A program made the translations under genes and the position numbers. Below, in pieces: positions 3,890 to 37,722 of a stretch of DNA of 64,000 nucleotides. Within the stretch, counting starts at the first letter, position 1. Each line of letters starts with the position of its first letter. Origin of the DNA: Clostridiales bacterium (GTDB lineage: Bacteria > Bacillota > Clostridia > Christensenellales > UBA3700). The notes beneath the pieces were generated by a model. The model saw nothing but the letters and a program-made list of their open reading frames with translations. It ran no database searches and was not told the origin of the DNA. The stretch is from the NCBI GenBank assembly GCA_014799645.1, contig JAAVHQ010000004.1:5925-69924 (forward strand). Reading direction: 5' to 3'.

Positions 3890-3894
3890 AAGTT

Positions 3895-3958
3895 TGTGCA
3901 AATCTGTGCGTGTACTGTGCAAAATTGTATCGAAATTGTGCAAACCATACGCTATAAT
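3895..3958 (+). promoter_or_regulatory. Late-promoter-like region: three TGTGCAAA direct repeats at 21-bp phasing, followed by TATAAT.
   Basis: TGTGCAAA at 3895, 3916 and 3937, exactly 21 nt apart. TATAAT at 3953-3958 with no properly spaced -35. Lies between the regulator gene and the HNH gene. Confidence 0.5.
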
Positions 3959-3977
3959 AAAAGTGAGGGGAAGAGAA

Positions 3978-4337
3978 ATGCCAAGAAAACCAAAGAGACC
4001 ATGCAGTTATCCAGGCTGTCCTAAACTTGTAGATGGACAATATTGTGAAGAGCATAAGAAGTTAACCGATAGCCAATATAACAAATACGGTAGAGATGAT
4101 TTCACAAAGTATTTTTATAAGACACCCGAATGGAGATACGCAAGAAAGAAACAATTGGATACTCATCCATTTTGTGAGAAATGCCTAAAAGAAGGCAAGC
4201 GAACAAAAGCAACTATGGTAGACCATATAGTCCCCATAAAGCAAGGCGGAGATAAATTCGCACCTAGTAACTTACAAAGCCTGTGTTGGAGTTGCCACAG
4301 CAGGAAGTCTGTGCTAGAAGGTAGTAGATGGCATTAA
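3978..4337 (+). CDS. HNH endonuclease (packaging-associated).
   Basis: Start moved to the ATG at 3978, behind GTGAGGGGAAGAG. Motif CEKCLKEGKRTKATMVDHIVPIKQGGDKFAPSNLQSLCWSCHSRKS. Position next to a P27-type TerS. Confidence 0.85.
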   Translation: MPRKPKRPCSYPGCPKLVDGQYCEEHKKLTDSQYNKYGRDDFTKYFYKTPEWRYARKKQLDTHPFCEKCLKEGKRTKATMVDHIVPIKQGGDKFAPSNLQSLCWSCHSRKSVLEGSRWH

Positions 4338-4563: not shown

Positions 4564-5343
4564 TCAATAAACGATTAGGTCATTTATGTTGACTCCTTCG
4601 AAAGAAAAAAACAACTCCATAGGCTTAAGAAAAAGGGAAGAGATTCTAATAGTTTCTATTTGGCCATAAGTGTAATTTCTAAAGGATGATATATCATACA
4701 ACTTTGTTGACAAAACGGAAGAAGGCGAAAGATTTAAAATAAAGCCAAAAGGCGGAGAGATAAATTCGGCTACAGTAAGATGCGTTATAGTATCTATTTT
4801 TGTATAGGTAATAGCGGTAGTATGTCTGGAACAACTATCAATAGGAACAAGGTACATATAGATATTAAAATCTTTTCCTTTCGGAGTAGATGTTGTTTTA
4901 TCCAATACAAAATCACCCAAGCCAAGCATCGAAACGGTTTCGGGCTCTAACACGCTACAAAAAATAGATGCAACTTGTTTATAAAAATTTAATGGTCTAA
5001 TAGTGCAATCGAATTCTATTATGGTATTTATCTTTTTAGAGTCTATTGCTTTTAATGCTGAAACCATCGATTTGGAGAAATCAGTATAGGAACGCACATA
5101 GTATGAGCCCATAGTATTATTGCAATTCTCACAAATGGTGGCGAGCTGATAACCACCTTGTGATTGAGAATATTTGCAAGAGGTCAATGGCTGTTTTCCT
5201 GAAAGATACGCTTGCAAGAGATCGTCATGGTCGTAACATTTAATATTGCCTTTATTACCTGTCGAACGTGGTGGTAAATGCTCAAATGTTAATTCTTTTG
5301 TTTGACCGCAAATATGGCAGATGCCTATTGGTTTTTTATTCAT
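4564..5343 (-). CDS. Moron protein with an N-terminal HNH-like Cys/His motif and a C-terminal domain of unknown function.
   Basis: 259 aa. CHICGQTKELTFEHLPP ... ATICENCNN resembles a CxxC...EH..P...CxxCN HNH finger. Opposite strand to all flanking phage genes. AT-rich, with its own promoter. Confidence 0.6.
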   Translation of the reverse strand: MNKKPIGICHICGQTKELTFEHLPPRSTGNKGNIKCYDHDDLLQAYLSGKQPLTSCKYSQSQGGYQLATICENCNNTMGSYYVRSYTDFSKSMVSALKAIDSKKINTIIEFDCTIRPLNFYKQVASIFCSVLEPETVSMLGLGDFVLDKTTSTPKGKDFNIYMYLVPIDSCSRHTTAITYTKIDTITHLTVAEFISPPFGFILNLSPSSVLSTKLYDISSFRNYTYGQIETIRISSLFLKPMELFFSFEGVNINDLIVY

Positions 5344-5390: not shown

Positions 5391-5507
5391 TGCCTAATGA
5401 AGAATAACAAGAGAGCGAACTTGCGTCCACGCTTGTACGGGTAGGGGGAGTCGAATCTCTGGGGATTTTACGCCCAAGAGCGGGGCCGCAGTCAAACGCG
5501 AATTTTC

Positions 5508-5636
5508 GCAAAATCAAAAATCAAACGTAAAAATCAAACAATCAAAATTCTTTAACAAAGTTAAAGGGGCGGGAAACCGCTCCTTTTTGATTTCAAAGCG
5601 AAATCAAAATAAATCAAATATTCAAAAAATCAAAAG
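5508..5636 (+). repeat. ATCAAA repeat field upstream of terS. Candidate terminase-binding part of the cos region.
   Basis: At least 7 exact ATCAAA copies plus 2 TTCAAA copies within about 130 nt, split by a hairpin. Preceded by a GC-rich stretch at 5420-5507. Confidence 0.5.
5563..5588 (+). terminator. Rho-independent terminator-like hairpin inside the cos-like region.
   Basis: AAAGGGGCGG-gaaa-CCGCTCCTTT followed by TT(T). Confidence 0.5.
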
Positions 5637-5644
5637 GAGGAATT

Positions 5645-6142
5645 ATGGCAAGCGGAGGAGCAAGAGCGGGAGCAGGTAGACCGAAGAAAGCCGCAACCCA
5701 GAAGATGCTTGAAGGCAACCCAGGCAGGCGTCCCGTCGAAGTCGTAAACTTCGGAGCGGAAGGCGTAGAACTGCCAAGTGAGCCGCCTACCTATTTATCG
5801 GATAAGGCAAAAGACATATACCGCACGGTGTACACATGGCTCAAAGGCATAGGGTGTACTTCGGGCATACTTCCATACAACTTGGAAGAGTATGCGTTTT
5901 GCAAGGCTAGGTGGCTTGAATGCGAAGAGATGAACACCAAACACGGACTGCTCGTAAAAGATCCAACAAACGGCAAAGCAATGCCGTCCCCATTTGTGGC
6001 AATGGCACAGCAATACTTAAAGCAGACCAATGACGTATGGGGAAAGATTTATCTCGTAGTACGCGAGAGCAAATTGTCGAAGTGGGATGAGAAAAATCCC
6101 AATGACGATATTATGGAAAAATTGTTGGGAGGTGGAACTTAA
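5645..6142 (+). CDS. terS: Terminase small subunit, P27 family.
   Basis: N-terminus GGARAGAGRPKKAATQKMLEGNPGRRP is typical of P27-family TerS. SD AAAGGAGG. Preceded by an HNH gene and the repeat field. Confidence 0.85.
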   Translation: MASGGARAGAGRPKKAATQKMLEGNPGRRPVEVVNFGAEGVELPSEPPTYLSDKAKDIYRTVYTWLKGIGCTSGILPYNLEEYAFCKARWLECEEMNTKHGLLVKDPTNGKAMPSPFVAMAQQYLKQTNDVWGKIYLVVRESKLSKWDEKNPNDDIMEKLLGGGT

Positions 6143-7998
6143 TGGAATACACAGAACGAAGTACATTGCGACTTATTGAATTGTTCGCAGGTATTGGCAG
6201 TCAAACGCAGGCTTTGACAAATATCGGTGTGCCGCACGAAGTGGTGGCGATATCCGAAATAGACAAGTATGCTATTAAGAGTTACGAGGCAATGCACGGA
6301 CCAGTCAATAACCTGGGAGATATAAGAGCAATCAAGGAATTGCCGAGCGCGGATATGTGGACATATTCTTTTCCTTGTCAGGATATCAGTGTAGCGGGCA
6401 AAGGCGCAGGTATAAAGGAAGGTACAAGGAGCGGACTGCTGATGGAAGTAGAGAGGCTCTTGAGAACCGCAGCCGAAACCGCTACACTGCCTAAATACTT
6501 ATTACTTGAAAACGTGAAGAACCTTGTGAGTAAGAAATTTAAAGCCGACTTTGACCGTTGGCTTTCTTTTTTGTCTTCGCTTGGGTACACGAACTATTGG
6601 CAAATACTCAACGCCAAAGATTACGGAATACCGCAGAACAGAGAGCGAGTATTTTGCGTGTCGATATTAGGCGAGCATAAGCCTTACGTATTCCCAGAAA
6701 AGCAGGAATTGAAACTGCGACTCAAAGATATGATAGACGCAGTAGTCGATGAAAAATACTACTTGAAAGAAAGTACGATTCGCAGTATTTTGCGGTCGAC
6801 ATTCAATTCGCGTCGTACTAGTATAAAGTCAAGCGAAGGAGTGGCTAGTACGTTGTTGGCGAGAGATTGGCGTGGACCTCAATGCGTTCAAGTTGGAGAA
6901 GTAGTCGGCGAAAAATGGGATAAGATGCACGATATAAGCAAACGTGTATACGAGCCAAGCGGAATATCTCCAACGATACATTGCGCAGGCGGTGGAAATA
7001 CCGAGCCTAAAATTGCGGAGAACTTTGTTCTTGGCGGTTTGCAAAAACACCAAACACCGAGAACCGACGGCATAAGCCCGGCGCTTACTGAGGCAATGGG
7101 AAAAGGTGGCGGTCAAACTCCAATTATTATCGACACCAAAGAAACGGGCGAAGAGCGGTTCTTCAAGCAAGCAGTAGAGGCTGTATTGGAAAACGAATGC
7201 GGAGTCGGAGATACGGTAGACGCATTTAACAAGAAAGTCAACCGCAGCGGAGTATGTCCGACGATTACAACTCGCCCAGAAGGATTCAAGACGGCAATAT
7301 TGCCAATAGTGGAAGATAAGACGGACAATCCGATCATTGTGGCAATGAGAGGTCGCAACCCAGACTATCCGTCGGATAGAACACCAGGCAAGCACTTGGA
7401 ACAAAGACTTGAACCTAACGAAAACGGATTATGCAACACGTTGACTTCGGTACAAAAAGACAACCTTGTATTGGAGAACAAGAGAGGCTCGAAAGAGTAT
7501 GTTGCTCGAAGATATAGGGAATTCATAGAAGTACACGGGTATATGCCAAAGAACTTCGTTGCCTATAACAAAACGGAAGTAAAGGACATTGCTCCGACGC
7601 TTACCGGGCAGTGTTCTTGTCCAAGCGGTAGTTCGGCAGTTTTGATGATGGAAGAGCCGATACAAATCAAAGTCGCAACAAAGCAAGGATACGAGGAAGC
7701 GGAGAAAGGAGATTATGTGAACATAACCTATCCAGGAAGTAACACCAAGCGCGGACGTGTTGGTAAGGGCATAGCTCATACGCTTACTTGTGGAGACGGC
7801 AACGCAGTAATTACGGAAAACATAAGAATCCGCAAGCTCACGCCGAAAGAGTGCTTGAGACTTATGGGATGGAAAGACGAGCAAATCAATAAAATCCAGG
7901 CGGCAAAGATTAGCGGTACACAACAGTACAGGCAAGCGGGAAACGGCATAGTAGTACAGGTCTTGGAGGCAATATTCAAGGCTTTATTTTTTTGTTAG
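6142..7998 (+). CDS. DNA (cytosine-5) methyltransferase with an unusually long, repetitive target-recognition region.
   Basis: Motif I ELFAGIGS, IV FPCQDIS, VI ENVKNL, VIII QNRERVF, IX/X LTPKECLRLMGW...QAGNGIVVQV. About 360 aa lie between motifs VIII and IX, with seven G-x-x-x-T-L/I-T-like blocks. Confidence 0.9.
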   Translation: MEYTERSTLRLIELFAGIGSQTQALTNIGVPHEVVAISEIDKYAIKSYEAMHGPVNNLGDIRAIKELPSADMWTYSFPCQDISVAGKGAGIKEGTRSGLLMEVERLLRTAAETATLPKYLLLENVKNLVSKKFKADFDRWLSFLSSLGYTNYWQILNAKDYGIPQNRERVFCVSILGEHKPYVFPEKQELKLRLKDMIDAVVDEKYYLKESTIRSILRSTFNSRRTSIKSSEGVASTLLARDWRGPQCVQVGEVVGEKWDKMHDISKRVYEPSGISPTIHCAGGGNTEPKIAENFVLGGLQKHQTPRTDGISPALTEAMGKGGGQTPIIIDTKETGEERFFKQAVEAVLENECGVGDTVDAFNKKVNRSGVCPTITTRPEGFKTAILPIVEDKTDNPIIVAMRGRNPDYPSDRTPGKHLEQRLEPNENGLCNTLTSVQKDNLVLENKRGSKEYVARRYREFIEVHGYMPKNFVAYNKTEVKDIAPTLTGQCSCPSGSSAVLMMEEPIQIKVATKQGYEEAEKGDYVNITYPGSNTKRGRVGKGIAHTLTCGDGNAVITENIRIRKLTPKECLRLMGWKDEQINKIQAAKISGTQQYRQAGNGIVVQVLEAIFKALFFC

Positions 7999-8006
7999 GA
8001 GGAAAG

Positions 8007-9125
8007 ATGACGAATAGAATCATAACAGCGGAGTCCGTGACGAGCGGACACCCAGACAAACTTGCGGATCTTATAGCGGACAGCATTCTCGACGAGTGCT
8101 TGGCGCAGGACGAGAACAGCAGAGTGGCTTGCGAAGTTGTGCTTGCTCACAACAAATGTTTTATCAGCGGAGAGATAACGACTTCCGCAAAGGTGGACTA
8201 CAAGGACGTAGCGAAGGCCGTAATCGAACAAGTCGGCTACGACACAGCGGATATTGAGTTCGAGGCTAGAATTCATACGCAAAGCGAAGACATATCTCAA
8301 GCCGTTAGCAAGGAAGAGCAAGGCGCAGGAGATCAAGGCATTGTGTACGGATATGCATGCAACGAAACGGCTCATTATATGCCGCTTGCAATCGAACTTG
8401 CTCATAGACTTACGGATAGGCTCGAAGAGTGTAGATGCAAAGGCATAATCAAAGGACTTCGCCCAGATGGTAAGAGTCAAGTATCAATTCAATACAACGG
8501 CGATAAGTTTGACAAGATTACCTCGGTTGTGGTATCGACGCAACACAGCGAATCGAAGAACCTTGCGGAGTTGACCAAGGAAATACATGAAAAGGTAATT
8601 GGTCAAGTGCTTGCGGGATATGACTTGACGGAAACGGAAATTCTCGTCAATCCATCCGGCAGATTTGTACTTGGGGGATTTGAAGCTGACACAGGACTCA
8701 CGGGACGCAAATTGATGGTTGACTCATACGGCGGAGTAGCGCATCACGGCGGTGGAGCAATGAGCGGTAAGGACGCAAGCAAGGTGGACCGTAGTGGCGC
8801 TTACCTTGCAAGATATATCGCAAAGAACATTGTAGCCGCAGGCTTGGCAGACAAGTGCGAAGTTTCGCTCTCGTATGCCATAGGCGTACCCAAGCCGACT
8901 GCCATTGACGTGAATACTTTTAATACGTCGGCAGTTGACGAGCAACTTATCATAAAGGCGGTGGAAAAGGTGTTTGACCTCTCGGTCGCAGGTGCGATAA
9001 AGAAACTTGACCTTCGCAGTCCTGCATTTTCTCAAACTGCGGTCGGTGGACACTTTGGAAAAGGTTTCTTTATTTGGGAACTGACGGATAAAGTCGAAGC
9101 ATTAAAGGCGGCAGTCAGCGACTAA
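8007..9125 (+). CDS. metK: S-adenosylmethionine synthetase (phage-encoded MetK).
   Basis: Start at the ATG at 8007, behind AGGAGG. Motifs SVTSGHPDKLAD, GAGDQGIVYGYA, DGKSQV, GGGAMSGKDASKVDRSGAY. Confidence 0.9.
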   Translation: MTNRIITAESVTSGHPDKLADLIADSILDECLAQDENSRVACEVVLAHNKCFISGEITTSAKVDYKDVAKAVIEQVGYDTADIEFEARIHTQSEDISQAVSKEEQGAGDQGIVYGYACNETAHYMPLAIELAHRLTDRLEECRCKGIIKGLRPDGKSQVSIQYNGDKFDKITSVVVSTQHSESKNLAELTKEIHEKVIGQVLAGYDLTETEILVNPSGRFVLGGFEADTGLTGRKLMVDSYGGVAHHGGGAMSGKDASKVDRSGAYLARYIAKNIVAAGLADKCEVSLSYAIGVPKPTAIDVNTFNTSAVDEQLIIKAVEKVFDLSVAGAIKKLDLRSPAFSQTAVGGHFGKGFFIWELTDKVEALKAAVSD

Positions 9126-9158
9126 AAAAGCAATTTATTTATTCTCCAAAATAGTCGC

Positions 9159-9198
9159 GTTTTTCTCTGGACTTCGTGCGTAGGGTACGGTATTGTTT
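9159..9198 (+). promoter_or_regulatory. Conserved promoter-like element, short form (copy D).
   Basis: GTTTTTCTCTGGACTT-N13-TACGGTATTGTT, i.e. TGGACT-17 nt-TATTGT. Same architecture and spacing as the copy at 28826-28862. Confidence 0.55.
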
Positions 9199-9217
9199 GA
9201 AAAAAGGGAGGTAGGTA

Positions 9218-9418
9218 ATGGCTAAACCAACAGTATACTTCGAAAGTAGAGGCGAAAGCGGAAATATATACGCTTTGCTCGGAAGAGTAAGTCAAGCCAT
9301 GAATGACGAAAAAGCATTCAATGAATTATGGGAAAAGGTACAGCAAGGTACATATCCCCAAGCAATCGAATTAATCAAGCAACGAGTGACTCTCATAGAT
9401 GCCGATGGGCTTTATTAG
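9218..9418 (+). CDS. Hypothetical small protein (66 aa).
   Basis: SD GGGAGG upstream of the ATG. First gene behind promoter-like copy D. Confidence 0.5.
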   Translation: MAKPTVYFESRGESGNIYALLGRVSQAMNDEKAFNELWEKVQQGTYPQAIELIKQRVTLIDADGLY

Positions 9419-9429
9419 AAGGGGGAAGA

Positions 9430-9651
9430 ATGGATAGATTTTTCAGTCAAGAGTTTTGCGATAGGTGTGGCAAATCTTTAAAGGACGGACGCATTATGTC
9501 GATGTACAACACCGACTGCATTTGTATGGAATGTAAGCGAAAGGAAAGAGAAAACGCCGACTACAAAACAGCGTGTGAAGCTGAACAAAATGCCGTGAAA
9601 AATGGTAACTTAAACTACCACGGAATAGGCTTAAAAACACCGAAAAAATAG
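9430..9651 (+). CDS. Small Cys-rich (zinc-ribbon-like) protein, 73 aa.
   Basis: Start moved to the ATG at 9430, behind GGGGGAAG. Motif CDRCGK...CICMECKRK. The longer track ORF (9328) overlaps the previous gene. Confidence 0.5.
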   Translation: MDRFFSQEFCDRCGKSLKDGRIMSMYNTDCICMECKRKERENADYKTACEAEQNAVKNGNLNYHGIGLKTPKK

Positions 9652-9676
9652 TTGAAAATTCTTTCAAAATTCTTTC

Positions 9677-9775
9677 GTTTTTCTACGCAATTTCGCTGGG
9701 CTCTTGTGTGTTTTTACGGTATTGTTGTGTTGTAAAACAAAAGAGGCAAGCGCCTCAAAAAGGAGAACACGCAAC
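9677..9775 (+). promoter_or_regulatory. Conserved promoter + 5' leader element, long form (copy A).
   Basis: GTTTTTCTACGCAATTTCGCTGGGCTCTT...TACGGTATTGTTG (TGGGCT-17 nt-TATTGT), then ACAAAA, hairpin GAGGC-aagc-GCCTC, and AAGGAG. Confidence 0.6.
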
Positions 9776-10672
9776 ATGAAAAATCAAACATTCGGAATCG
9801 AAATCGAACTCACAGGCATCACGAGAAAAGATGCGGCAAAGGTAATCGCAGATTACTACGGAACGACATCCTACTACGCAGGTAGCGTATACGAAACCTA
9901 CGAAGCAACCGATAGGCAAGGACGCAAATGGAAAGCAATGAGCGACTCAAGCATCCGCGCCGAAAGAAAGAACGGACAAACAGCAACAGCCGAATACAGA
10001 TGCGAGATCGTAACACCAGTATGCAAATGGGAAGACATCGCAGACATACAGGAAATCGTAAGACAACTGAGACACAAAGGCGCGATAGCAAACAGCAGCT
10101 GTGGAATACACGTACACGTCGGAGCGGAGAGACATACGGCAAAGACCTTACGAAACCTAGTCAACATAATGACAAGCAAAGAAGACATACTGTTCAAAGC
10201 AATAGGGGTAACACCAGATAGAGCAAACAGATGGTGCAAAAAAACGGAGCAAAGGTTCGTAGAAGAGATGAACCGCACAAAACCAACAACGACAGCAAAC
10301 GTCGAGAGAATATGGTACAACGGAAGTTCGCATAGATACGAACACTACGACAGCAGTCGCTACCGCGCCCTCAACCTACACAGCCTCTGGCAAGGAAAAG
10401 GAATCGAGTTCAGATGCTTTAACGGTACGACGCACGCAGGCAAGATTAAGACCTACATACAATTATGCCTAGCAATATGCAACCAAGCCTTAACGCAAAA
10501 CGGAGCAAGCGCCAAGAAGACGGTAACGGCAAACGAAAAGTACACCTTCCGCACATGGCTCCTAAGACTAGGAATGATAGGCGATGAGTTCGAAACGGCT
10601 AGAAAGTTTTTACTCGAAAACTTAAGCGGAGACATAGCGTTCAAAAACGGAAGACCTGGGGTAGCGGCCTAA
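9776..10672 (+). CDS. Putative amidoligase (Amidoligase_2 / carboxylate-amine ligase-like).
   Basis: Start moved to the ATG at 9776, behind AAGGAG. N-terminal FGIEIELTG and central CGIHVHVG blocks as in the phage/plasmid amidoligase family. The 24-codon N-terminal extension in the track covers the conserved leader. Confidence 0.6.
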   Translation: MKNQTFGIEIELTGITRKDAAKVIADYYGTTSYYAGSVYETYEATDRQGRKWKAMSDSSIRAERKNGQTATAEYRCEIVTPVCKWEDIADIQEIVRQLRHKGAIANSSCGIHVHVGAERHTAKTLRNLVNIMTSKEDILFKAIGVTPDRANRWCKKTEQRFVEEMNRTKPTTTANVERIWYNGSSHRYEHYDSSRYRALNLHSLWQGKGIEFRCFNGTTHAGKIKTYIQLCLAICNQALTQNGASAKKTVTANEKYTFRTWLLRLGMIGDEFETARKFLLENLSGDIAFKNGRPGVAA

Positions 10673-10701
10673 CCGCTCCCTAGAAAATGGAGGATAAATA
10701 A

Positions 10702-11136
10702 ATGGAAAACAAACTTTATGTAGCATACGGTAGCAACTTAAACCTTACGCAAATGGCAAGACGGTGTCCTATGGCAAAGGTCGTAGGTATAGGCAAACTC
10801 AAAGACTACCAACTTACATTCCGTAGGGTAGCAACAATAGAACAAGTTAATGGCACGGAGACGCCCGTCGGAGTATGGGAAATTACACCGAATGACGAGT
10901 TGGCACTCGATAGGTACGAAGGATACCCACACTTATACCGCAAGGAAACGGTCACGGTGGAAATGAAAGACGGAGCAGTCGAAGCTATGGTGTACATTAT
11001 GAATAGCGGTAAACCAAGCATGCCATACCAAGAGTATTACAACACAATACTCAAAGGATACGAGGATGTAGGGCTCGATACAAAATACCTACAAGCGGCT
11101 CTCGATGACACACAAAAAAGAATGAGAGCGAAATAA
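10702..11136 (+). CDS. Gamma-glutamylcyclotransferase-like (AIG2/GGCT fold) protein.
   Basis: LYVAYGSNLNLTQM N-terminal motif and LDRYEGYPHLYRKE. SD GGAGG. Confidence 0.8.
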   Translation: MENKLYVAYGSNLNLTQMARRCPMAKVVGIGKLKDYQLTFRRVATIEQVNGTETPVGVWEITPNDELALDRYEGYPHLYRKETVTVEMKDGAVEAMVYIMNSGKPSMPYQEYYNTILKGYEDVGLDTKYLQAALDDTQKRMRAK

Positions 11137-11157
11137 AAACAAACAAGTGCGTGTTCA

Positions 11158-11186
11158 AAGGGAGAGCTTCGGCTCTCCTTTTATTA
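11158..11186 (+). terminator. Rho-independent terminator after the amidoligase-GGCT pair.
   Basis: AAAGGGAGAGC-ttcg-GCTCTCCTTTT followed by a T-rich run. Confidence 0.75.
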
Positions 11187-11205
11187 TTGGCAAATGGAGG
11201 TAGGA

Positions 11206-12756
11206 ATGGCATACAACAAACAACTTGCCGACCGCGCCGTTGCCTTTATAAACTCGCTCAAGCACACCAAAGGTACTTGGCACGGAGTACCATTCGAGTT
11301 ATTGCCGTGGCAGGACAAAATCATAAGAGATATATTCGGCACGGTAAAAGACAACGGATATAGGCAGTACAACACCGCTTACGTAGAGATACCAAAGAAG
11401 CAAGGCAAGAGCGAGATAGCGGCGGCAATAGCTCTTTATCTTTTAGCGGGAGATGGAGAGTGGGGAGCGGAAGTCTATGGATGCGCCGCCGACCGACAGC
11501 AAGCAAGTATCGTGTTCGACGTGGCTTGTAATATGGTAGAACAATGTCCAGCATTGAAAAAGAGAATCAAGCCAATTATGAGCCAGAAAAGGCTAGTATA
11601 TAAACCGCTTAATTCGTTCTACCAAGTGCTGTCGGCTGAATCGTATACAAAGCACGGACTCAACGTACATGGCGTTGTGTTCGATGAATTACATGCACAG
11701 CCGAACCGAGCATTATACGACGTAATGACGCTTGGTTCGGGAGATGCAAGAAAGCAACCGCTATTCTTCTTGATTACCACAGCGGGAACGGATAGAAACT
11801 CAATATGTTGGGAAGTGCATCAAAAGGCAAAGGATATAATCGAAGGGCGAAAGCACGATAGATCGTTCTACCCAGTCATATACGGCGCGGACGATGATGA
11901 CGATTGGGGAGATGAAAAAGTGTGGGCAAAGGCAAACCCATCACTTGGCATAACGGTAGATATAGATAAACTGAAAACTGCCTATGAGTCAGCAAAAGAG
12001 AACCCGGCGGAAGAGAACTTGTTCCGACAACTCCGCCTAAATCAATGGGTAAAGCAAAGTGTCCGTTGGATGCCTATGGATGCATGGGATAAATGTGATT
12101 TTGAAGTTGACGCTGAAAAATTGAAAGGTAGAGAGTGCTACGGCGGACTAGACCTTTCGTCAAGCACCGACATAACGGCTTTTGTGCTTGTATTTCCGCC
12201 ATTGCATGAGGAAGATAAATACATTGTGTTGCCGTTCTTTTGGATACCAGAAGATACGATAGATTTGCGAGTTCGACGCGATCACGTGCCATACGACGTT
12301 TGGCAGGCGAAAGGGCAAGTAATAACCACGGAGGGCAATGTAATCCATTACGGATACATTGAGAACTTTATCGAAGACCTTGGCACGAAATACAACATAA
12401 AAGAAATAGCATTCGATAGATGGGGAGCAGTACAAATGACACAAAATCTTGAAGGAATGGGATTCACGGTAGTGCCATTTGGTCAAGGCTTTAAGGATAT
12501 GAGTCCACCGACAAAAGAACTAATGAAACTTGTTCTTGAGCAAAAGATAGCGCACGGCGGGAACGTACCATTGCGATGGATGATGGACAACGTATACGTA
12601 AGAACTGATCCTGCCGGGAACGTCAAGATGGACAAAGAAAAATCCACAGAACGTATAGACGGAGCAGTCGCACTTGTTATGGCTTTGGATAGAGCAATTC
12701 GCAATAAGGGAACGACAGAAAGCGTGTATAACGGCAGGGGAATTATTGTGATATAG
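11206..12756 (+). CDS. terL: Terminase large subunit.
   Basis: Start at the ATG at 11206, behind GGAGG. Walker-like IPKKQGKSEIAA, VVFDELH, and C-terminal nuclease-like GGLDLSSSTD...DGAVALVMAL. 516 aa. Confidence 0.9.
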   Translation: MAYNKQLADRAVAFINSLKHTKGTWHGVPFELLPWQDKIIRDIFGTVKDNGYRQYNTAYVEIPKKQGKSEIAAAIALYLLAGDGEWGAEVYGCAADRQQASIVFDVACNMVEQCPALKKRIKPIMSQKRLVYKPLNSFYQVLSAESYTKHGLNVHGVVFDELHAQPNRALYDVMTLGSGDARKQPLFFLITTAGTDRNSICWEVHQKAKDIIEGRKHDRSFYPVIYGADDDDDWGDEKVWAKANPSLGITVDIDKLKTAYESAKENPAEENLFRQLRLNQWVKQSVRWMPMDAWDKCDFEVDAEKLKGRECYGGLDLSSSTDITAFVLVFPPLHEEDKYIVLPFFWIPEDTIDLRVRRDHVPYDVWQAKGQVITTEGNVIHYGYIENFIEDLGTKYNIKEIAFDRWGAVQMTQNLEGMGFTVVPFGQGFKDMSPPTKELMKLVLEQKIAHGGNVPLRWMMDNVYVRTDPAGNVKMDKEKSTERIDGAVALVMALDRAIRNKGTTESVYNGRGIIVI

Positions 12757-12783
12757 AGCCTAAATATTTCATAAAAAATGTGT

Positions 12784-12880
12784 GTTTTTCTACGCAATTT
12801 CGCTGGGCTCTTTGACTTGTTTACGGTATTGTTGTAGTAGAAAACAAAACAAGGGCAAGCCGCCCAAAAAGGAGAGAAAA
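12784..12880 (+). promoter_or_regulatory. Conserved promoter + 5' leader element, long form (copy B).
   Basis: Near-identical to copy A over GTTTTTCTACGCAATTTCGCTGGGCTCTT and TTACGGTATTGTTGT. Hairpin here is GGGC-aagcc-GCCC, then AAGGAG. Confidence 0.6.
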
Positions 12881-13348
12881 ATGGCAAGTGCAATTAAAGT
12901 AACAGCAGAAGTAACAAGCAAAAAAGGATTTTATGTAGGCGACATATGTTACCAGATGACAGACGAAAATTACTACGCAGATTGGAGTAACGACTTCAAC
13001 GACTTCGAAGGGGAACACGAAATCCATGGATACAAGTTCGGAGTCGGCGGAACGAAATACGGAGACGGATGCTACGAAGACCAATACGGACACACATACG
13101 GAGTAGACGCAGGAAACATCGGAATACTGCCATACGAAATATGCGAGAGCAAGAACGTAGAAGAAATCGCAAAATATGGAAGATTTATCGAAGCAACGAA
13201 AGCAACATTCACAGCGGAAGACGGTATAATCGAAATCGAGTTCGACAACGGCGAGTACATATACATCAACACAGGAGACTATGACGAAGAAGACGAAGAA
13301 TACTACGATGAAGAGTATGATGACGAGTACGACGATGACGAAGATTAA
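12881..13348 (+). CDS. Acidic protein with a poly-D/E/Y tail. Candidate DNA-mimic anti-restriction protein.
   Basis: Start moved to the ATG at 12881. 155 aa ending in DYDEEDEEYYDEEYDDEYDDDED. Has its own promoter-like element and terminator. Confidence 0.55.
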   Translation: MASAIKVTAEVTSKKGFYVGDICYQMTDENYYADWSNDFNDFEGEHEIHGYKFGVGGTKYGDGCYEDQYGHTYGVDAGNIGILPYEICESKNVEEIAKYGRFIEATKATFTAEDGIIEIEFDNGEYIYINTGDYDEEDEEYYDEEYDDEYDDDED

Positions 13349-13369
13349 AAGCAGAAAAAGAGAGATAAT

Positions 13370-13397
13370 CGCACAGCAATGTGCGGTTTTATTTTTG
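13370..13397 (+). terminator. Rho-independent terminator.
   Basis: CGCACA-gcaa-TGTGCG followed by GTTTTATTTTT. Confidence 0.65.
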
Positions 13398-13399
13398 AA

Positions 13400-13525
13400 T
13401 TTGTAAACAAGCAAAAAGCGCCACATGTAAACTAAAGTTAACACAATGTAAAACAAAGTTGACAAAATTTAGCGTGTAAGTTTACATAATGTTAACTAAA
13501 GTTGACAAGATGTAAACTAAAATAT
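13400..13525. repeat. TGTAAAC(T/A)AAAGTT(A/G)ACA repeat field upstream of the ParB-methyltransferase gene.
   Basis: ATGTAAACTAAAGTTAACA, ATGTAAAACAAAGTTGACA, GTGTAAGTTTACATAATGTTAACTAAAGTTGACA and AGATGTAAACTAAAAT. Contains TTGACA boxes. Confidence 0.6.
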
Positions 13526-13548
13526 TTCAGCAAATATAGGAGAACAGA

Positions 13549-14886
13549 ATGCAGATAGAAAAAAGAGCGGTGGCAGATTTGAAAGCCGCCGAGTACAATC
13601 CACGTAAGGATTTACAGCCAGGGGATGCGGAATACGAGAAACTCAAGAGAAGTATTCAAGAGTTCGGCTACGTAGAACCTGTTATATGGAACAAACGCAC
13701 AGGAGTAGTCGTTGGCGGTCACCAAAGACTGAAAGTCATGAAAGACCTTGGGTATGATGAAGTAGATTGCGTAGTAGTTGATCTTGACGAAAGCAAAGAA
13801 AAAGCCTTGAACATCGCATTGAATAAAATCAGCGGCGAGTGGGATAACGACTTATTGGCAAGCCTTTTGAAAGATTTGGACGGTAGCGGTTACGATATCA
13901 CTCTTACAGGTTTTGACCTTGCCGAGGCTCAAGAGCTGTTCGGTAGCGGTTCAATGGAGAATGTTCACGAAGACAATTTCGACGCAGATTCAGCAATAGA
14001 GGAAATAGCCGAGCCAAAGACAAAAGAGGGAGATTTGTGGATACTCGGACAGCATAGATTGTTGTGTGGAGATTGCACTCAAAAAGAGAATGTGGAGAAG
14101 GTGCTTGACGGCAGAGTGGCAGATATTATGGTTACCGATCCGCCGTACAACGTGGACTACGGCTCGGCAGTTAACGGCAAGCATAAATCACAGACAAGAG
14201 CAAATAGCACGATAGCCAATGACAATCTCTCCGACGACGAATTCTATCAGTTCCTTTTGGCGTTCTACAAGGCGGCTGAAAGCGGACTGAAAAAGGGAGC
14301 GCCTATCTATGTGTTCCACAGCACGAAAGAGACCGTGAACTTTACGAATGCAATGACAGGCGCAGGATTAAAGTATTCGCAAACGCTTATATGGTTAAAG
14401 AACCATTTCACTTTGGGACGTCAAGATTATCAATGGAAGCATGAACCGATACTCTACGGGTGGAAAGAAGGAGCAGGCCATTATTTCATTAATGACCGCA
14501 CGTTGTCGACCGAATTGGAAGCCATTGCCCAAAACATCAAGAAGATGAGTAAAGCGGAATTGTTGGAACTCTTGGAAAAGATACTCAACTTACCATCGAC
14601 GGTAATAGAAGACAATAAGCCTGCCAAGTCTCCAGACCATCCTACAATGAAACCCGTAACATTGTGCGCCAAACTTATATACAACAGCTCTCATGAGGGA
14701 GACTTGGTATATGAGCCTTTTGGCGGCAGCGGTTCTGTATTGATTGCTTCGGAGCAGTTGAATCGCAAGTGTTGCGCTATTGAACTTGAACCGAAATACT
14801 GCGACGTTATAGTCCGTAGATATAGGGAAACGTGTCCCGAAGCGGAAATTAGACATATCCGTGACGGCATAGAAATATTCGATTAA
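13549..14886 (+). CDS. ParB-like N-terminal domain fused to an N6-adenine/N4-cytosine DNA methyltransferase.
   Basis: ParB box VVGGHQRLKVMKDLG. Motif IV TDPPYN. Motif I EPFGGSGSVLIA near the C-terminus (beta-class order). Confidence 0.85.
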   Translation: MQIEKRAVADLKAAEYNPRKDLQPGDAEYEKLKRSIQEFGYVEPVIWNKRTGVVVGGHQRLKVMKDLGYDEVDCVVVDLDESKEKALNIALNKISGEWDNDLLASLLKDLDGSGYDITLTGFDLAEAQELFGSGSMENVHEDNFDADSAIEEIAEPKTKEGDLWILGQHRLLCGDCTQKENVEKVLDGRVADIMVTDPPYNVDYGSAVNGKHKSQTRANSTIANDNLSDDEFYQFLLAFYKAAESGLKKGAPIYVFHSTKETVNFTNAMTGAGLKYSQTLIWLKNHFTLGRQDYQWKHEPILYGWKEGAGHYFINDRTLSTELEAIAQNIKKMSKAELLELLEKILNLPSTVIEDNKPAKSPDHPTMKPVTLCAKLIYNSSHEGDLVYEPFGGSGSVLIASEQLNRKCCAIELEPKYCDVIVRRYRETCPEAEIRHIRDGIEIFD

Positions 14887-14903
14887 TTATGAAAAAAACT
14901 TGT

Positions 14904-14998
14904 GTGTTTCTACGCAATTTCACTGGGCTCTTTGAAGTAATTACGGTATTGTTGTAATAGAAAACAAAACAAGGGAAACAACCCGAAGGAGACACAAA
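14904..14998 (+). promoter_or_regulatory. Conserved promoter + 5' leader element, long form (copy C).
   Basis: GTGTTTCTACGCAATTTCACTGGGCTCTT...TTACGGTATTGTTGT. Hairpin GGG-aaacaa-CCC, then GAAGGAG. Confidence 0.6.
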
Positions 14999-15310
14999 AT
15001 GGAAAAGACAAAAGCAACAAAAAAGAATATCTTCAGAACCTTAAAAGATTATAGCCACGGATACCACGAACACGCAAGTGAAGAAGAGAACAAAGTCTAC
15101 GACCAAAAGGTCGAAGCTCTCAAAGCAAGAATCATAGCGGACGTAGAACATGCGCCAGAGATTATAGCAGAAGAGTTCGCAACGCACAATGCGAAAATGT
15201 ATAGGGCTCAAATGCAAGGCAAGTATGCAACATTAATCTGCAATGCGGAATGGAAAGCAATAGACAACGTGTATATGGCACTCATAGATAGCAAGCCATT
15301 AAAAGGTTAA
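14999..15310 (+). CDS. Hypothetical protein (103 aa), a moron between the ParB-MTase and portal genes.
   Basis: ATG behind GAAGGAG. Bracketed by promoter-like copy C and a terminator. Confidence 0.5.
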   Translation: MEKTKATKKNIFRTLKDYSHGYHEHASEEENKVYDQKVEALKARIIADVEHAPEIIAEEFATHNAKMYRAQMQGKYATLICNAEWKAIDNVYMALIDSKPLKG

Positions 15311-15333
15311 ATCAAATAGAAAAACAATCAAGA

Positions 15334-15359
15334 CCGTCCGCAAGGGCGGTTTATTTATT
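15334..15359 (+). terminator. Rho-independent terminator.
   Basis: CCGTCC-gcaa-GGGCGG followed by TTTATTTATT. Confidence 0.6.
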
Positions 15360-15369
15360 GGAGAAAAAT

Positions 15370-16632
15370 ATGAGAATACTAGGACGGAACAGAGACTCCC
15401 CAAAGAGGGAAAAAAGAAATGCGCCAAGTAGAGAGATGCAAGACTTTATACGTGGAATCGACGTAGACTTTGGCGGGAACAGCAATAGCGGCGTAAGAGT
15501 TGACGAGTTAAGAGCAATGCAAACTTCTGCGGTATATGCGTGTGTGAAAATACTTGCGGAGACGGTGGCAAGTTTGCCGTTGCACTTATTCCGAAAAGGC
15601 AAAGACGGAAAGAACGAAACAGCGGACCAACATCCGCTGTTTTCTTGTTTGTACGAAATGCCGAATGAAGAAATGACGAGTTTTGAATTTAGAGAGATTA
15701 TGATGACCTCATTGCTTTTGTGGGGAAATGCGTATGCTCGAATAATTCGACGCAAAGGACACGTTGAGCAATTATGGTATATGAAACCGCAAAACGTAAC
15801 GGTTGAGAGAGATACACAAACAGGCAAGATAAAATACACATACACCGATGATATCACCAACCAAACCTATGTGTATCGCGCCGACCAAGTATTCCACGTT
15901 AAAGGCATGTCGTTGGACGGAGTAAAGGGATTAAGTCCCATATCTCAAGCAAGAGAAGCTGTCGGCTTATCGCTTGCTACGGAAGAGTACGGAGCAAAGT
16001 TCTTTGGCAACGGAGCAAGACCGGGCGGTGTGCTTGAGCATCCAGGAATACTTAAAGATCCAGAGAAACTGCGTGAGTCATGGAATAAGGTCTATCAAGG
16101 TACAAGGAATAGCCACAAAGTAGCGGTGCTTGAAGAAGGTATGAAATATCACACGATAGGCATCGCGCCAGAAGACGCGCAATTCTTGGAGACACGCAAA
16201 TACCAAGTCAATGAGATATGCCGAATATTCCGTGTTCCGCCGCACTTGGTCGGAGATTTGGAAAGGGCTACGTTCAGCAACATAGAACACCAATCTATAG
16301 AATTTGTACAACACACAATAAGACCGTGGCTTGTGAGATGGGAGCAAGCAATAAGCCGTTCGCTTTTAGATGAGGGTGAGCGGCTTTTGTATTTTGCAAA
16401 GTTCAACGTAGACGGGCTGTTGCGTGGCGATTACAAGTCTAGAATGGAAGGCTATGCCATAGGACGACAGAACGGATGGCTGTCAATCAACGACATAAGA
16501 AGGCTTGAAGATATGAGCCTTGTTCCGACGGATAAAGGTGGAGACGATTATCTCGTCAATGGCAATATGACAGCAGCCAATGTAGTAAATGACAAGGAGG
16601 ATAAGAAAGAAAAAGGGAATGGAAAAAAGTAA
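15370..16632 (+). CDS. Portal protein, HK97 family.
   Basis: ATG at 15370, behind GGAGAAAAAT. About 420 aa, with conserved blocks LLWGNAYA and FRVPPHLVGD. Followed by the protease and capsid genes. Confidence 0.9.
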   Translation: MRILGRNRDSPKREKRNAPSREMQDFIRGIDVDFGGNSNSGVRVDELRAMQTSAVYACVKILAETVASLPLHLFRKGKDGKNETADQHPLFSCLYEMPNEEMTSFEFREIMMTSLLLWGNAYARIIRRKGHVEQLWYMKPQNVTVERDTQTGKIKYTYTDDITNQTYVYRADQVFHVKGMSLDGVKGLSPISQAREAVGLSLATEEYGAKFFGNGARPGGVLEHPGILKDPEKLRESWNKVYQGTRNSHKVAVLEEGMKYHTIGIAPEDAQFLETRKYQVNEICRIFRVPPHLVGDLERATFSNIEHQSIEFVQHTIRPWLVRWEQAISRSLLDEGERLLYFAKFNVDGLLRGDYKSRMEGYAIGRQNGWLSINDIRRLEDMSLVPTDKGGDDYLVNGNMTAANVVNDKEDKKEKGNGKK

Positions 16633-21499: not shown

Positions 21500-22411
21500 A
21501 TGGATAAACTTTTTATAATAGGCAATGGCTTTGATAGTGCGCATAATTTTCCAACAAAATACAAACATTTTCGAAAATACTTAATTAAAGAATACGACAA
21601 CCCTTATAGTTACATTCCAGAGGAGGCAATAGGACCAGATGGCGAGACCGCTAACTATAGACACGTTGCAGGGCTATTAATAAATTTGTTTGATGGCTAT
21701 TACAATGATGAAGATTGGGGAGATGTTGAGGCCGCTTTGCCAGACCTTGATTATAGACAATTCTTAGAAGATGTCAACATGGAGAATGATGATAGAAATA
21801 TATACCATACAATATACTCAAATGAAGACGCGATTAATAATTTGGGAACATGTATGCCAATAATGAAAGAACTTATTCACGAATGGCTTGAGACGGTTGT
21901 GATTAATGCAAATACGAAGAAAGCATTCCCAAATTTAATTGACAAAGATGGGATTGTCTTAACGTTTAATTACACTGATACATTAGAAAAAGTGTATAAA
22001 ATCAATCCTAAAAACATTTGTCACATTCATGGTATGATTGGGCAAGATATCGTATTTGGTCATGGCAAAATAGATAATTTGCTTGAAGGGGCGTATAGTA
22101 GGTACTTTATATCAGAGGTCAAACTACAAGATGTAATTAACTCTATGTTAAAAGACGTTGACGGCTGTATAGCAAAGCATAGTACATTTTTTGTCAATCT
22201 ATCCAAAGAACCAATTCGGGATATCTATTCAATAGGCTTCTCTTTTGCGAATGTCGATTTGGAATATATAATTGAAATTTGTAGAAGAATAGATACATCC
22301 AGTGTTGTTTGGCACTTGACTCAATTTGATAAAAGCAAAGGCAACATTAAAAGATTTGAACAAGTAATTAGAGGTTGCGGATTTAAAGGAACATTCGGTC
22401 AATTAATTTAA
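21500..22411 (+). CDS. AbiH-family abortive-infection-like protein.
   Basis: N-terminus MDKLFIIGNGFDSAHNFPTKYKHF, plus FNYTDTLEKVY and CHIHG blocks as in lactococcal AbiH-family proteins. AT-rich, with its own promoter and terminator. Confidence 0.75.
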   Translation: MDKLFIIGNGFDSAHNFPTKYKHFRKYLIKEYDNPYSYIPEEAIGPDGETANYRHVAGLLINLFDGYYNDEDWGDVEAALPDLDYRQFLEDVNMENDDRNIYHTIYSNEDAINNLGTCMPIMKELIHEWLETVVINANTKKAFPNLIDKDGIVLTFNYTDTLEKVYKINPKNICHIHGMIGQDIVFGHGKIDNLLEGAYSRYFISEVKLQDVINSMLKDVDGCIAKHSTFFVNLSKEPIRDIYSIGFSFANVDLEYIIEICRRIDTSSVVWHLTQFDKSKGNIKRFEQVIRGCGFKGTFGQLI

Positions 22412-30438: not shown

Positions 30439-30445
30439 CAGCACA

Positions 30446-32416: not shown

Positions 32417-32692
32417 ATGTTTCATAGATCTTACTATACGAAAGAGGGATATAAACAAATCTATAGACCTAATAGTTCGGAAGCAAGAGAAACTGGATAT
32501 GCACCAGCACATCGTGTTATTGCGAGTAAAAAAATTGGAAGACCGTTATTGCCAAACGAAGTAGTACATCATATTGATGGCAACAAAAAAAACAATCGTC
32601 CTAAAAATTTGCAAGTAATGACTCGTGCCGAACATAATAATTTGCATGGATTAAATTTTAGGGGAAAGGGTAATAGACGTGGTCGCCATTGA
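32417..32692 (+). CDS. Small HNH endonuclease (91 aa).
   Basis: HHIDGNKKNNRPKNLQVMTRAEHNNLH. SD AAAGGAG. Confidence 0.8.
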   Translation: MFHRSYYTKEGYKQIYRPNSSEARETGYAPAHRVIASKKIGRPLLPNEVVHHIDGNKKNNRPKNLQVMTRAEHNNLHGLNFRGKGNRRGRH

Positions 32693-34337: not shown

Positions 34338-34344
34338 TGTTCCA

Positions 34345-34446
34345 AAATCGATAGATTTTGTCATACACACTATCGTAAATGCGAGATTTTGTAATATACA
34401 CACAAGTGTATCGGTCTAAAAGTCTTTTGACTATTAGACCTTTTTC
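34345..34446 (+). repeat. Cassette-end composite repeat, copy 2.
   Basis: AGATTTTGTCATACACAC-13 nt-AGATTTTGTAATATACACACAAG, then GGTCTAAAAGTC-tttt-GACTATTAGACC and TTTTT. Confidence 0.75.
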
Positions 34447-34527
34447 TTGATAATTTGAGCAAACCTTCAATTGAAGAGATATGATTAAGCTTAAATATAT
34501 TTATATTTGTATAATTTTATAAAATAA

Positions 34528-34556
34528 TTGATTTAATTTATGTTTTTTGCTATAAT
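34528..34556 (+). promoter_or_regulatory. Strong sigma-70-type promoter of the Mrr/helicase/DarT/ARH cassette.
   Basis: TTGATT-17 nt (ending in TGC)-TATAAT, 30 nt upstream of the Mrr ATG. Confidence 0.6.
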
Positions 34557-34585
34557 TTAAAAGAAAATTCGTATCGAGGTGTAGC

Positions 34586-35467: not shown

Positions 35468-35573
35468 GTATTGTTGAAATCGCTAAAAAGCTGACTAGGG
35501 GTATCTTATTTGTGGTCAGCTAATATGTATTATAGGAAGTAAAATGAAAAAGTAAGACATCATAGCATTTATC

Positions 35574-37720: not shown

Positions 37721-37722
37721 TT

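Follow-up and report, generated by a model that had tools for sequence, protein, structure and literature searches.

Methyltransferase genes coupled to terminase genes, and moron-type cassettes, in the packaging region of a Heliusvirales-type prophage

The phage group closest to the locus described here is Candidatus (Ca.) Heliusvirales (de Jonge et al. 2024, Nat Commun, PMC11283538). Methyltransferases (MTases) and the S-adenosylmethionine synthetase MetK have already been reported for this group. The paper gives a C5-methyltransferase for 67% and MetK for 58.9% of the genomes, treats both as auxiliary metabolic genes, and reports a common DNA methyltransferase cluster. There, membership is defined by a bit-score above 700 with a hidden Markov model of the large terminase subunit (TerL) and by nine markers: TerL, portal, major capsid protein, head protease, DNA polymerase, exonuclease, ssDNA-binding protein, endonuclease and helicase. 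Here we analyze a window of 64,000 nucleotides from a Clostridiales bacterium (GCA_014799645.1, contig JAAVHQ010000004.1); "the window" means this whole stretch, and positions count from its first letter. It carries a prophage in which the genes for the small terminase subunit (terS), TerL and the portal are set apart by two MTases, MetK, an amidoligase, a GGCT-like protein and several small proteins. The region is probably an accessory zone beside the packaging genes of a temperate, HK97-like siphovirus related to Ca. Heliusvirales, in which a methylation core is combined with moron-type cassettes. The host is likely to be a member of the Clostridia that resembles Christensenellales. The layout is the ordinary, long-conserved architecture of a Heliusvirales-type phage branch, not a recent insertion.

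The TerL of the window is 65-79% identical over its full length to those of the Ca. Heliusvirales references (50 genomes, PV0364xx), which were the best matches in the phage collection searched. The likeness extends to the head module of portal, S78 head protease (PF04586) and HK97-type major capsid protein (PF05065), in which the latter two follow the portal, to the HNH endonuclease, and to serine recombinases at the prophage end. TerL, portal, S78 protease and capsid protein are the group markers seen in the window, together with a primase-helicase at 726-2693. A further relative is the Terrisporobacter prophage TPDSL_ph1 (PP197246; PMC11253131), an experimentally active prophage whose particle-protected DNA was sequenced (PMC11253131). 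Its TerL is 75% identical to that of the window, and its terS and TerL are also split. The order is HNH, terS, hypothetical, DNA methyltransferase, hypothetical, two amidoligases, GGCT, TerL and portal. It differs from the window in having two amidoligase paralogues and contiguous TerL and portal genes, and no MetK is annotated in the stretch seen.

The two gaps in the packaging genes measure 5,063 nt (terS to TerL) and 2,613 nt (TerL to portal), in agreement with the approximately 5 and 2.6 kb noted earlier from the sequence of the window alone. That original prediction took the intervening genes as an island of about 9 kb inserted into a contiguous packaging operon. We took 80 IMG/VR loci with a TerL 81-97% identical to that of the window; 47 of these, the window included, hold both terS and TerL. 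The loci are redundant, many coming from a single metagenome, so these counts are descriptive. In all 47, terS lies 2.8-8.0 kb (median 6.1) 5' of TerL. Neither these close loci (TerL ≥81% identical) nor the genome loci at the same TerL identity include one with contiguous terS, TerL and portal and intact flanks. The backbone runs HNH - terS - (C5-MTase or ParB-MTase) - MetK - (sigma factor) - orf66 family - [amidoligase-GGCT] - TerL - variable - ParB-MTase - variable - portal. In L196, a metagenome-assembled genome (MAG) of Clostridia whose TerL is 98% identical, the gene order is exactly that of the window. The hosts of the closest relatives are Christensenellales-type MAGs and the mouse-gut isolates Pumilibacter, Anaerocaecibacter and Christensenella sp.

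The split also extends to distant phages. At least 24 annotated phage records are split by 3.4-9.6 kb, among them the Heliusvirales type genome NatCom_991, Erysipelothrix phi1605, Gardnerella vB_Gva_AB1 and Streptococcus Javan422; in about 20 others, terS abuts TerL. In a more independent GTDB set (one genome per species, 72 Bacillota loci), approximately 31 loci are split and 41 have contiguous terS and TerL, as assigned by reading the gene orders. The contiguous type places a ParB-MTase and at least one amidoligase, often with a GGCT and a Zn-ribbon gene, between HNH and terS. Modification genes lie between HNH and TerL in both layouts, and the position of terS alone differs. The terS of split-type relatives is 37-42% identical to that of the window, and that of contiguous-type relatives 31-35%. 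These values indicate that both layouts are old.

At the start of this module, the terS stop and the C5-MTase start overlap in TAATG, with the ribosome-binding site (RBS) of the MTase inside terS. MetK starts 8 nt after the C5-MTase stop, and its RBS lies over that stop. By these junctions, terS, the C5-MTase and MetK are translationally coupled, as a hard-wired methylation core. MetK is present in 45/47 close loci and absent from contiguous-type genomes. The second MTase follows TerL. In the isolate genome L199, the ATG of the ParB-MTase lies approximately 12 nt past the TerL stop, and the junction is similar in L074, L197, L207, L219 and L045. The orf155 cassette, which separates the two genes in the window and in L196, is missing from L199, L197, L074 and L207, where TerL and the ParB-MTase abut; compared with L199, the unit is a clean insertion. 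Junctions as tight as these would leave the C5-MTase, MetK and the ParB-MTase no space for promoters of their own. Being coupled to terS or abutting TerL, the methylation genes appear to belong to the packaging operon. The original prediction had organized most of the intervening genes as mini-operons. This stands for amidoligase plus GGCT, orf155 and orf103, each of which has an upstream element and a terminator (see below), and falls for the MTases and MetK, which are coupled to packaging genes.

The C5-MTase contains the full catalytic set of motifs (FAGIGS, FPCQDIS, ENV, QNRERVF and GNG; TIGR00675 8e-65). The match to its Pfam family is split, covering aa 10-224 and approximately 500-615, on either side of a variable (target-recognition) region of about 380 aa. 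Relatives differ in this region by block indels of 30-90 aa, which suggests that it may hold several target-recognition domains. The nearest solved relative is M.MpeI (4dkj). Multispecific C5-methyltransferases of the Bacillus phages SPR, phi3T, rho11s and H2 were reportedly described by the Trautner laboratory. The window enzyme is like these in being a phage orphan C5-MTase whose catalytic motifs flank an enlarged modular variable region, as is said of the Bacillus enzymes; its region is larger than theirs reportedly are. None of them was among the 40 best records listed for the window C5-MTase. The ParB-MTase consists of an N-terminal ParB/Srx-like domain fused to an N6-adenine/N4-cytosine MTase (TDPPYN, the DPPY motif) and is found in essentially every relative. 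Both enzymes are orphan: there is no nuclease partner nearby, and a PADLOC search of the region for known defence and anti-defence systems returned MTase models alone. Anti-restriction through methylation would be a plausible role.

Repeats were also noted beside these genes. The palindromes 5' of the ParB-MTase (Table 1) occur in L196, which has the same orf155 cassette, and are absent 5' of the ParB-MTase in 63 relatives. One possible role is that of an operator; another is that of a restart promoter moving with the orf155 cassette. We considered ParB-binding iterons and rejected them, since the palindromes travel with the cassette and are not general to the ParB-MTase. In the stretch 5' of terS (5500-5640), a strong hairpin (5563-5586) is flanked by an AATCAAA repeat array and by inverted repeats (TTTTGATTTC / GAAATCAAAA). 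Relatives have a similar hairpin, followed by TTGATTTC, approximately 84 nt 5' of terS. This could be a control region of the late operon or a cos/terS binding site.

The genes outside the methylation core are arranged differently. We found, by eye and with nhmmer, an element of approximately 100 nt that is repeated in front of the amidoligase, orf155 and orf103. Its core is CTGGGCTC-N12-ACGGTATnnT, which can be read as TGGGCT-17 nt-TATnnT. The pattern CTGGGCTC-N(9-15)-ACGGTAT has three matches in the 64 kb, all in this region and always with a spacer of 12 nt, and 0 in 100 shuffles. A degenerate copy that retains ACGGTATTGTT lies 5' of orf66. With nhmmer, 113 copies were found in viral loci and 106 in genome loci, at 1-12 per locus. 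An exact-pattern scan of IMG/VR yielded 108 stretches, mostly on the same contigs. The element is confined to a Christensenellales-associated clade (TerL approximately 88% identical or more), and nhmmer found no copy in the TPDSL_ph1 loci L084 and L086. It precedes at least 20 unrelated families, including c19, the amidoligase (28 relatives), DUF6900, orf155, c74, c30 and orf103. It never precedes TerL, the portal, MTases, MetK or toxin-antitoxin cassettes.

An alignment of 35 distinct copies showed invariant CTGGGCTC.T and ACGGTAT..T blocks at fixed spacing, with a variable spacer sequence. The invariant positions of TATnnT are the best conserved positions of -10 hexamers. RNAalifold on the same copies gave -1.78 kcal/mol and no covarying pair, that is, no conserved RNA structure, and Rfam and ARAGORN had no matches in the region. 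A scan for the sigma-70 consensus (4.3-19 kb) found no convincing sites on the + strand in intergenic regions. The promoter-like elements claimed earlier for these units survive as a conserved element before three cassettes, not as sites of the sigma-70 consensus. The element reads as a promoter with an unusual -35 region, or as an activator or alternative-sigma site. A modest proposal is that CTGGGCTC-N12-ACGGTATnnT would define a dedicated transcription programme, under which 20 or more small accessory genes could be exchanged. In 30/47 relatives, a sigma factor (Sigma70_r2 plus a region-4-like helix-turn-helix (HTH), 174 aa; e.g. L038:4276-4800) is encoded between MetK and TerL. The idea that the element depends on this gene in cis was rejected: several genomes, the window included, carry elements and lack the gene. 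As a separate observation, each element has a short hairpin immediately before the RBS (9743-9756, 12853-12865 and 14974-14985). These hairpins vary yet stay paired (GAGGC/GCCTC, GGGC/GCCC and GGG/CCC), and those at 9743-9756 and 12853-12865 score as terminator-like on the opposite strand. They may be 5' mRNA stabilizers or terminators against antisense transcription.

Three moron-type cassettes can be delimited in this way, namely amidoligase plus GGCT, orf155 and orf103, each with the element 5' and a terminator 3'. The terminators placed earlier at 11158, 13370 and 15334 are present as hairpins followed by T-tracts (Table 1). The distance from an element to the next terminator-like site has a median of 934 nt. 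With an element and a terminator of their own, the cassettes could plausibly be expressed independently of late transcription. TerL and the portal begin 8-20 nt past the terminator of the preceding cassette, and with the terminators just 5' they would have to be reached by read-through. A hairpin and T-tract within 160 nt 5' of TerL was found in 54/62 distinct relatives, compared with 3/166 control windows. Morons in the late operons of lambdoid/HK97-like phages were reportedly described by Juhala and co-workers and by Hendrix and co-workers, both in 2000. The cassettes resemble them as extra genes between late genes, with a promoter-like sequence 5', a terminator 3' and clean presence or absence. 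They differ in sharing one conserved, lineage-specific, non-consensus element, where morons reportedly have individual sigma-70 promoters, and in a G+C content that is not foreign. The amidoligase-GGCT cassette is also far more widely conserved than a typical moron is said to be.

Aligning related prophages for variable insertions, as had been proposed, showed that the accessory content does differ among relatives. The amidoligase-GGCT pair is absent from 19/47 loci and orf103 from about half of the close relatives. The slot between TerL and the ParB-MTase holds RelB/ParE, MNT/HepT, HTH-DUF3990, Fic, metallophosphoesterase and uncharacterized genes in relatives; the RelB/ParE, MNT/HepT, HTH-DUF3990 and Fic cassettes (e.g. 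L026:11684-12429, L037:11582-12476, L032:11774-13055 and L044:11626-12570) have no element 5'. DUF6809, DUF6900 and several uncharacterized small proteins occupy the slot between the ParB-MTase and the portal, and a sigma-70 r2/r4 factor, a PAPS-reductase-like gene and a radical-SAM gene (SAM, S-adenosylmethionine) that between MetK and TerL. The slots are general accessory sites, and part of their cargo is typical of host defence or addiction, not of anti-defence.

The amidoligase was modeled by AlphaFold2 (AF2) with a predicted local distance difference test (pLDDT) score of 93.9. The closest folds are YbdK, glutamine synthetases and Dop (probability 0.98-1.0, template modelling (TM) score only 0.38-0.43). 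No solved sequence relative was found, and there are more than 7,500 unnamed homologues. The GGCT-like protein aligns to human GGCT (2pn7, E=1e-6), with YGSNL and the residue aligned with the catalytic Glu98 kept. Among the 47 close loci, 28 have both genes, 0 a single one and 19 neither. Across Bacillota, two amidoligase paralogues occur: the long one co-occurs strictly with GGCT, and the short one is found without it. The family phrog_27033 combines an N-terminal GGCT part with a C-terminal Zn-ribbon part, and the small Zn-ribbon open reading frame (ORF) of the window, which the automatic gene caller of the public assembly had skipped, matches the latter. Its homologues adjoin amidoligase or GGCT genes in many Bacillota prophages. 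The chemistry of the pair would most likely be the making and removing of a gamma-glutamyl-type amide. Iyer and co-workers, in Mol Biosyst in 2009, reportedly described Amidoligase_2 / AIG2-GGCT gene neighbourhoods of Firmicutes phages. The likeness is a PF12224 amidoligase beside an AIG2/GGCT protein. What our comparison adds is the strict pairing of the long form, the short paralogue without GGCT, the Zn-ribbon that is sometimes fused to GGCT, and the fixed position between HNH and TerL across Bacillota prophages. In the literature searched, no experimental work on the pair was found; a role in cell-wall modification has been predicted (PMC11253131, PMC11318856), and other papers treat the genes as metabolic.

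The protein encoded by orf155 had been proposed as an acidic DNA mimic. It has a pI of 4.05, a net charge of about -34 (43 D+E and 9 K+R) and a tail with 18 D/E in 23 residues. Its 48 homologues share the domain (GFYVGDxCY..GDGxY..VDAGNIG), and their acidic tails vary. The AF2 model has a pLDDT of 84, with the tail below 50 and predicted to be disordered. Against PDB folds, the best match had E=0.57 and a TM score of 0.16, and matches in BFVD were uncharacterized phage proteins alone. Pfam, NCBIfam and PADLOC gave no match, and a profile found no sequence match in the PDB. With Ocr/ArdA-type mimics, orf155 shares the strong negative charge but no similarity of sequence or fold, so acidity alone remains of the mimic proposal. 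For orf66, orf103 and orf155, searches of Pfam, NCBIfam and PHROGs gave nothing beyond families that have no assigned function.

The original prediction explained the locus as an anti-defence island of independent mini-operons, a self-protection arsenal inserted into a contiguous terS-terL-portal operon. The three units with their own promoter-like element and terminator, the two orphan MTases, the differing slot content and the strong acidity of orf155 are all consistent with it. The comparison with relatives argues the other way. The split and most of the genes are kept across a deep clade; for the MTases, MetK and the amidoligase, this is largely the observation that had been named in advance as refuting that prediction. 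There is no compositional anomaly (G+C 0.42-0.49 over 6-16 kb vs 0.43-0.48 in the head genes). Moreover, terS-C5-MTase-MetK and, ancestrally, TerL-ParB-MTase are translationally coupled, the slots of relatives carry toxin-antitoxin, Fic and phosphoesterase genes, that is, defence or addiction and not anti-defence, and orf155 is unlike any known mimic. An inserted island is accordingly quite unlikely. A different objection concerns terS itself. The product of the gene that we call terS could be a terS-like paralogue with another role, the true small terminase being a gene that adjoins TerL, such as orf66 of the c2 family. This family (66-73 aa) is the last gene directly 5' of TerL or of the amidoligase cassette in 44/47 relatives, and terS of the window is under the curated cut-offs of both PF05119 (Terminase_4; 3.4e-5) and TIGR01558 (5e-7). 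It matches phrog_83, the terS family, over its full length (Table 1), and is 31-35% identical to the terS that abuts TerL in contiguous-type relatives. The c2 proteins match phrog_1933 alone, a family of unassigned function (8e-8 for one relative), and are half the size of known small terminases. We looked for a hidden second terS and rejected each candidate: the 155-aa ORF that follows HNH in contiguous-type genomes belongs to phrog_2308, c2/orf66 belongs to phrog_1933, and no genome has two copies of terS. The paralogue explanation is thus hardly credible.

The cassette element could also be a recombination or linker sequence for the exchange of cassettes between phages and not a promoter, and would then owe its conservation to recombination and not to transcription. 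It marks the 5' boundary of swappable units from at least 20 families, fits the sigma-70 consensus poorly and is limited to one phage clade. Each of the 219 copies is oriented in sense with the gene that follows and ends in the RBS and start codon of that gene, and the conservation lies in two short blocks at fixed spacing, with an invariant TATnnT, as in a promoter and not a homology box. The two roles are not mutually exclusive, and we regard a recombination sequence in place of a promoter as rather improbable. For the amidoligase module (short and/or long PF12224 form, with GGCT and Zn-ribbon for the long form), we tentatively consider, in place of disposable cargo, a covalent modification system of this phage supergroup coupled to packaging. 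It would write, and with GGCT erase, a gamma-glutamyl-type amide; the target would be the phage DNA, a protein of the virion or of packaging, or an amine packaged along with the DNA. Three observations suggest this proposal: all sampled Bacillota prophages of the contiguous type have at least one paralogue, always with a ParB-MTase, in the interval from HNH to TerL; the long form is strictly paired with GGCT; and in those Arthrobacter and Porphyromonas phages that were checked, PF12224 genes adjoin genes for the terminase or the head. In Arthrobacter phage Salgado, the pair lies at the right end with a glutamine amidotransferase; in Porphyromonas phages, the amidoligase is within the head module. 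Even so, we consider it rather unlikely. A rival reading, in which the C5-MTase, MetK, amidoligase, GGCT and Zn-ribbon form one pathway of DNA base hypermodification that starts from a methylated or activated base, is very unlikely. In its favour, these genes lie together next to the packaging genes in prophages across Bacillota, no substrate has been assigned to the amidoligase, and amidoligase/amidotransferase Pfam domains have been noted in phage thymidine-hypermodification clusters (PMC8989533). The pair, however, occurs with or without the C5-MTase or MetK (L049-52, L065, L072; contiguous-type genomes all lack MetK), and a dependence of the amidoligase on either gene was rejected on these presence/absence patterns. 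In this clade, it also has its own promoter-like element and terminator. The domain searches of the window found no base kinase, hydroxymethylase, TET/JBP or glycosyltransferase, and GGCT-type enzymes cleave gamma-glutamyl amides, which fits turnover better than a stable DNA mark.

Several observations weigh against the combination of a methylation core and moron-type cassettes as we describe it. The element matches the sigma-70 consensus at only 7/12 positions and was not reported by the promoter scan; instead of a promoter, it could be a recombination box or a site for an activator or an alternative sigma factor. The sigma-factor gene of relatives is absent from the window, where MetK precedes orf66 directly. 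The three cassettes are not compositionally foreign, unlike classical morons. The amidoligase is present in every contiguous-type genome sampled, which suggests a core phage function rather than dispensable moron cargo. The multispecificity of the C5-MTase is deduced solely from the size of its variable region and the block indels. Finally, the contig ends before the left part of the prophage is complete, and the replication genes lie beyond that end.

Table 1. Features of the packaging region of the prophage, with coordinates in the window.
Feature	Coordinates	Strand	Evidence
HNH endonuclease	3894-4337	+	PF01844 E=1.6e-13
terS, small terminase subunit, P27 family type	5645-6142	+	phrog_83 E=3.4e-32, full length
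Orphan C5-cytosine methyltransferase, 618 aa	6142-7998	+	PF00145 1.4e-66
MetK, S-adenosylmethionine synthetase	8007-9125	+	TIGR01034 equivalog 5.6e-146, above cut-off; all three Pfam domains
orf66, small conserved protein, c2 / phrog_1933 family	9218-9418	+	phrog_1933 E=9e-5
Zn-ribbon ORF, 73 aa	9430-9651	+	phrog_27033 E=1.6e-31
Cassette element copy 1, 5' of amidoligase	9677-9777	+	nhmmer E=1.7e-26; bipartite motif
Amidoligase, glutamine-synthetase/GCS2 superfamily carboxylate-amine ligase	9776-10672	+	PF12224 E=1e-70, above cut-off
GGCT-like, AIG2/GGACT family	10702-11136	+	PF06094 1.2e-11; phrog_2520 1.2e-40; PF06094 and PF13772 above cut-off
Terminator-like hairpin closing the amidoligase-GGCT cassette	11157-11186	+	GGAGAGC-TTCG-GCTCTCC, then TTTTATTATT; TerL RBS approximately 20 nt further on
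TerL, large terminase subunit	11206-12756	+	PF20441 2e-50; PF03354 4e-21; phrog_9 2e-192
Cassette element copy 2, 5' of orf155	12784-12883	+	nhmmer E=2.3e-30; bipartite motif
orf155, acidic, beta-rich domain and D/E/Y tail	12881-13348	+	No family match
Terminator-like hairpin closing the orf155 cassette	13367-13395	+	9-bp stem and T-tract
Palindrome array, 3-4 x TGTwAAC-N4-GTTrACA, 21-bp spacing	13425-13521		Between the orf155 terminator and the ParB-MTase RBS
ParB-N6/N4 orphan methyltransferase	13549-14886	+	PF01555 1.5e-27, PF02195 1.9e-6, both above cut-off; phrog_498 8e-158
Cassette element copy 3, 5' of orf103	14904-15001	+	nhmmer E=6.1e-26; bipartite motif
orf103, small protein	14999-15310	+	No Pfam, PHROG, NCBIfam or PADLOC match
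Terminator-like hairpin closing the orf103 cassette	15331-15358	+	Hairpin and T-tract; portal RBS 8 nt further on
Portal	15370-16632	+	PF04860

The gene identities named earlier are each backed by the domain searches in Table 1, and their coordinates hold. The HNH endonuclease marks where the packaging gene set begins on its upstream side, and nearly all relatives have an HNH gene there. Between 3.9 and 19 kb, every gene except one is on the + strand. An antisense ORF of 259 aa (4564-5343, - strand) lies between HNH and terS, in a region of low G+C (0.36). A separate sigma-70-like promoter, which has an extended -10 (5390 to 5361, 10/12), serves this ORF. It is a singleton among 83 clustered loci and gave weak HNH_5 and LmuC-like matches only; it looks like a recent moron. 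In the tail module, directly before the tape-measure gene, a 303-aa gene with an AbiH (abortive infection) domain lies at 21500-22411 (G+C 0.37).

The right end of the prophage is near 32 kb, and the left side runs past the contig end. Two tandem large serine recombinases (Resolvase, Recombinase and Zn ribbon) at 28945-32035 mark the right end. Beside the prophage lies a stretch of G+C 0.30-0.39 (32679-39255), possibly another mobile element or a defence island, in which an HNH_3 protein of 552 aa, a UvrD-like helicase and an ADP-ribosylglycohydrolase are encoded. From approximately 47.9 kb there are host genes, FeoB among them, and a tRNA-Leu lies at 58614-58700.

We propose a model with two layers for this accessory zone, built on the observed gene identities, conservation, coupling and distribution of the element. 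In the first layer, terS is coupled to a C5-MTase with a long target-recognition region and then to MetK, and the ParB-type N6A/N4C MTase belongs directly behind TerL. Progeny DNA would receive methyl groups at several motifs, either shortly before packaging or while it proceeds, and MetK would keep up the supply of SAM. Once injected, the genome would be resistant to restriction by the next host, and a silent prophage would leave its lysogen unmethylated. The second layer would be the three cassettes, which sit at hot spots and are gained and lost among relatives; their predicted promoters and their timing would be their own. To include TerL, the ParB-MTase and the portal, the late transcript would have to continue past the terminators of the cassettes. 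The amidoligase-GGCT pair may write and erase a gamma-glutamyl-type amide on some amine.

In the literature searched, we found no report of the two layouts, of methylation genes being coupled to terS and TerL, of the cassette element or of the strict pairing of amidoligase and GGCT. The consulted passages of the Heliusvirales paper (PMC11283538) make no mention of an amidoligase, a cyclotransferase, a terS/TerL split, two architectures or a cassette element. Heliusvirales-type phages rank with the most widespread phages of human and animal guts. Methylation genes wired to terS and TerL provide a testable model of timing, in which self-methylation would occur only on induction, together with packaging. 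The shared element is a sequence handle for finding the accessory repertoire of the clade and for testing its expression in lysogens. The strict pairing of amidoligase and GGCT and their fixed position make a 17-year-old bioinformatic prediction, that of a phage amidoligase system, tractable, and cultured lysogens exist in Pumilibacter, Anaerocaecibacter and Terrisporobacter.

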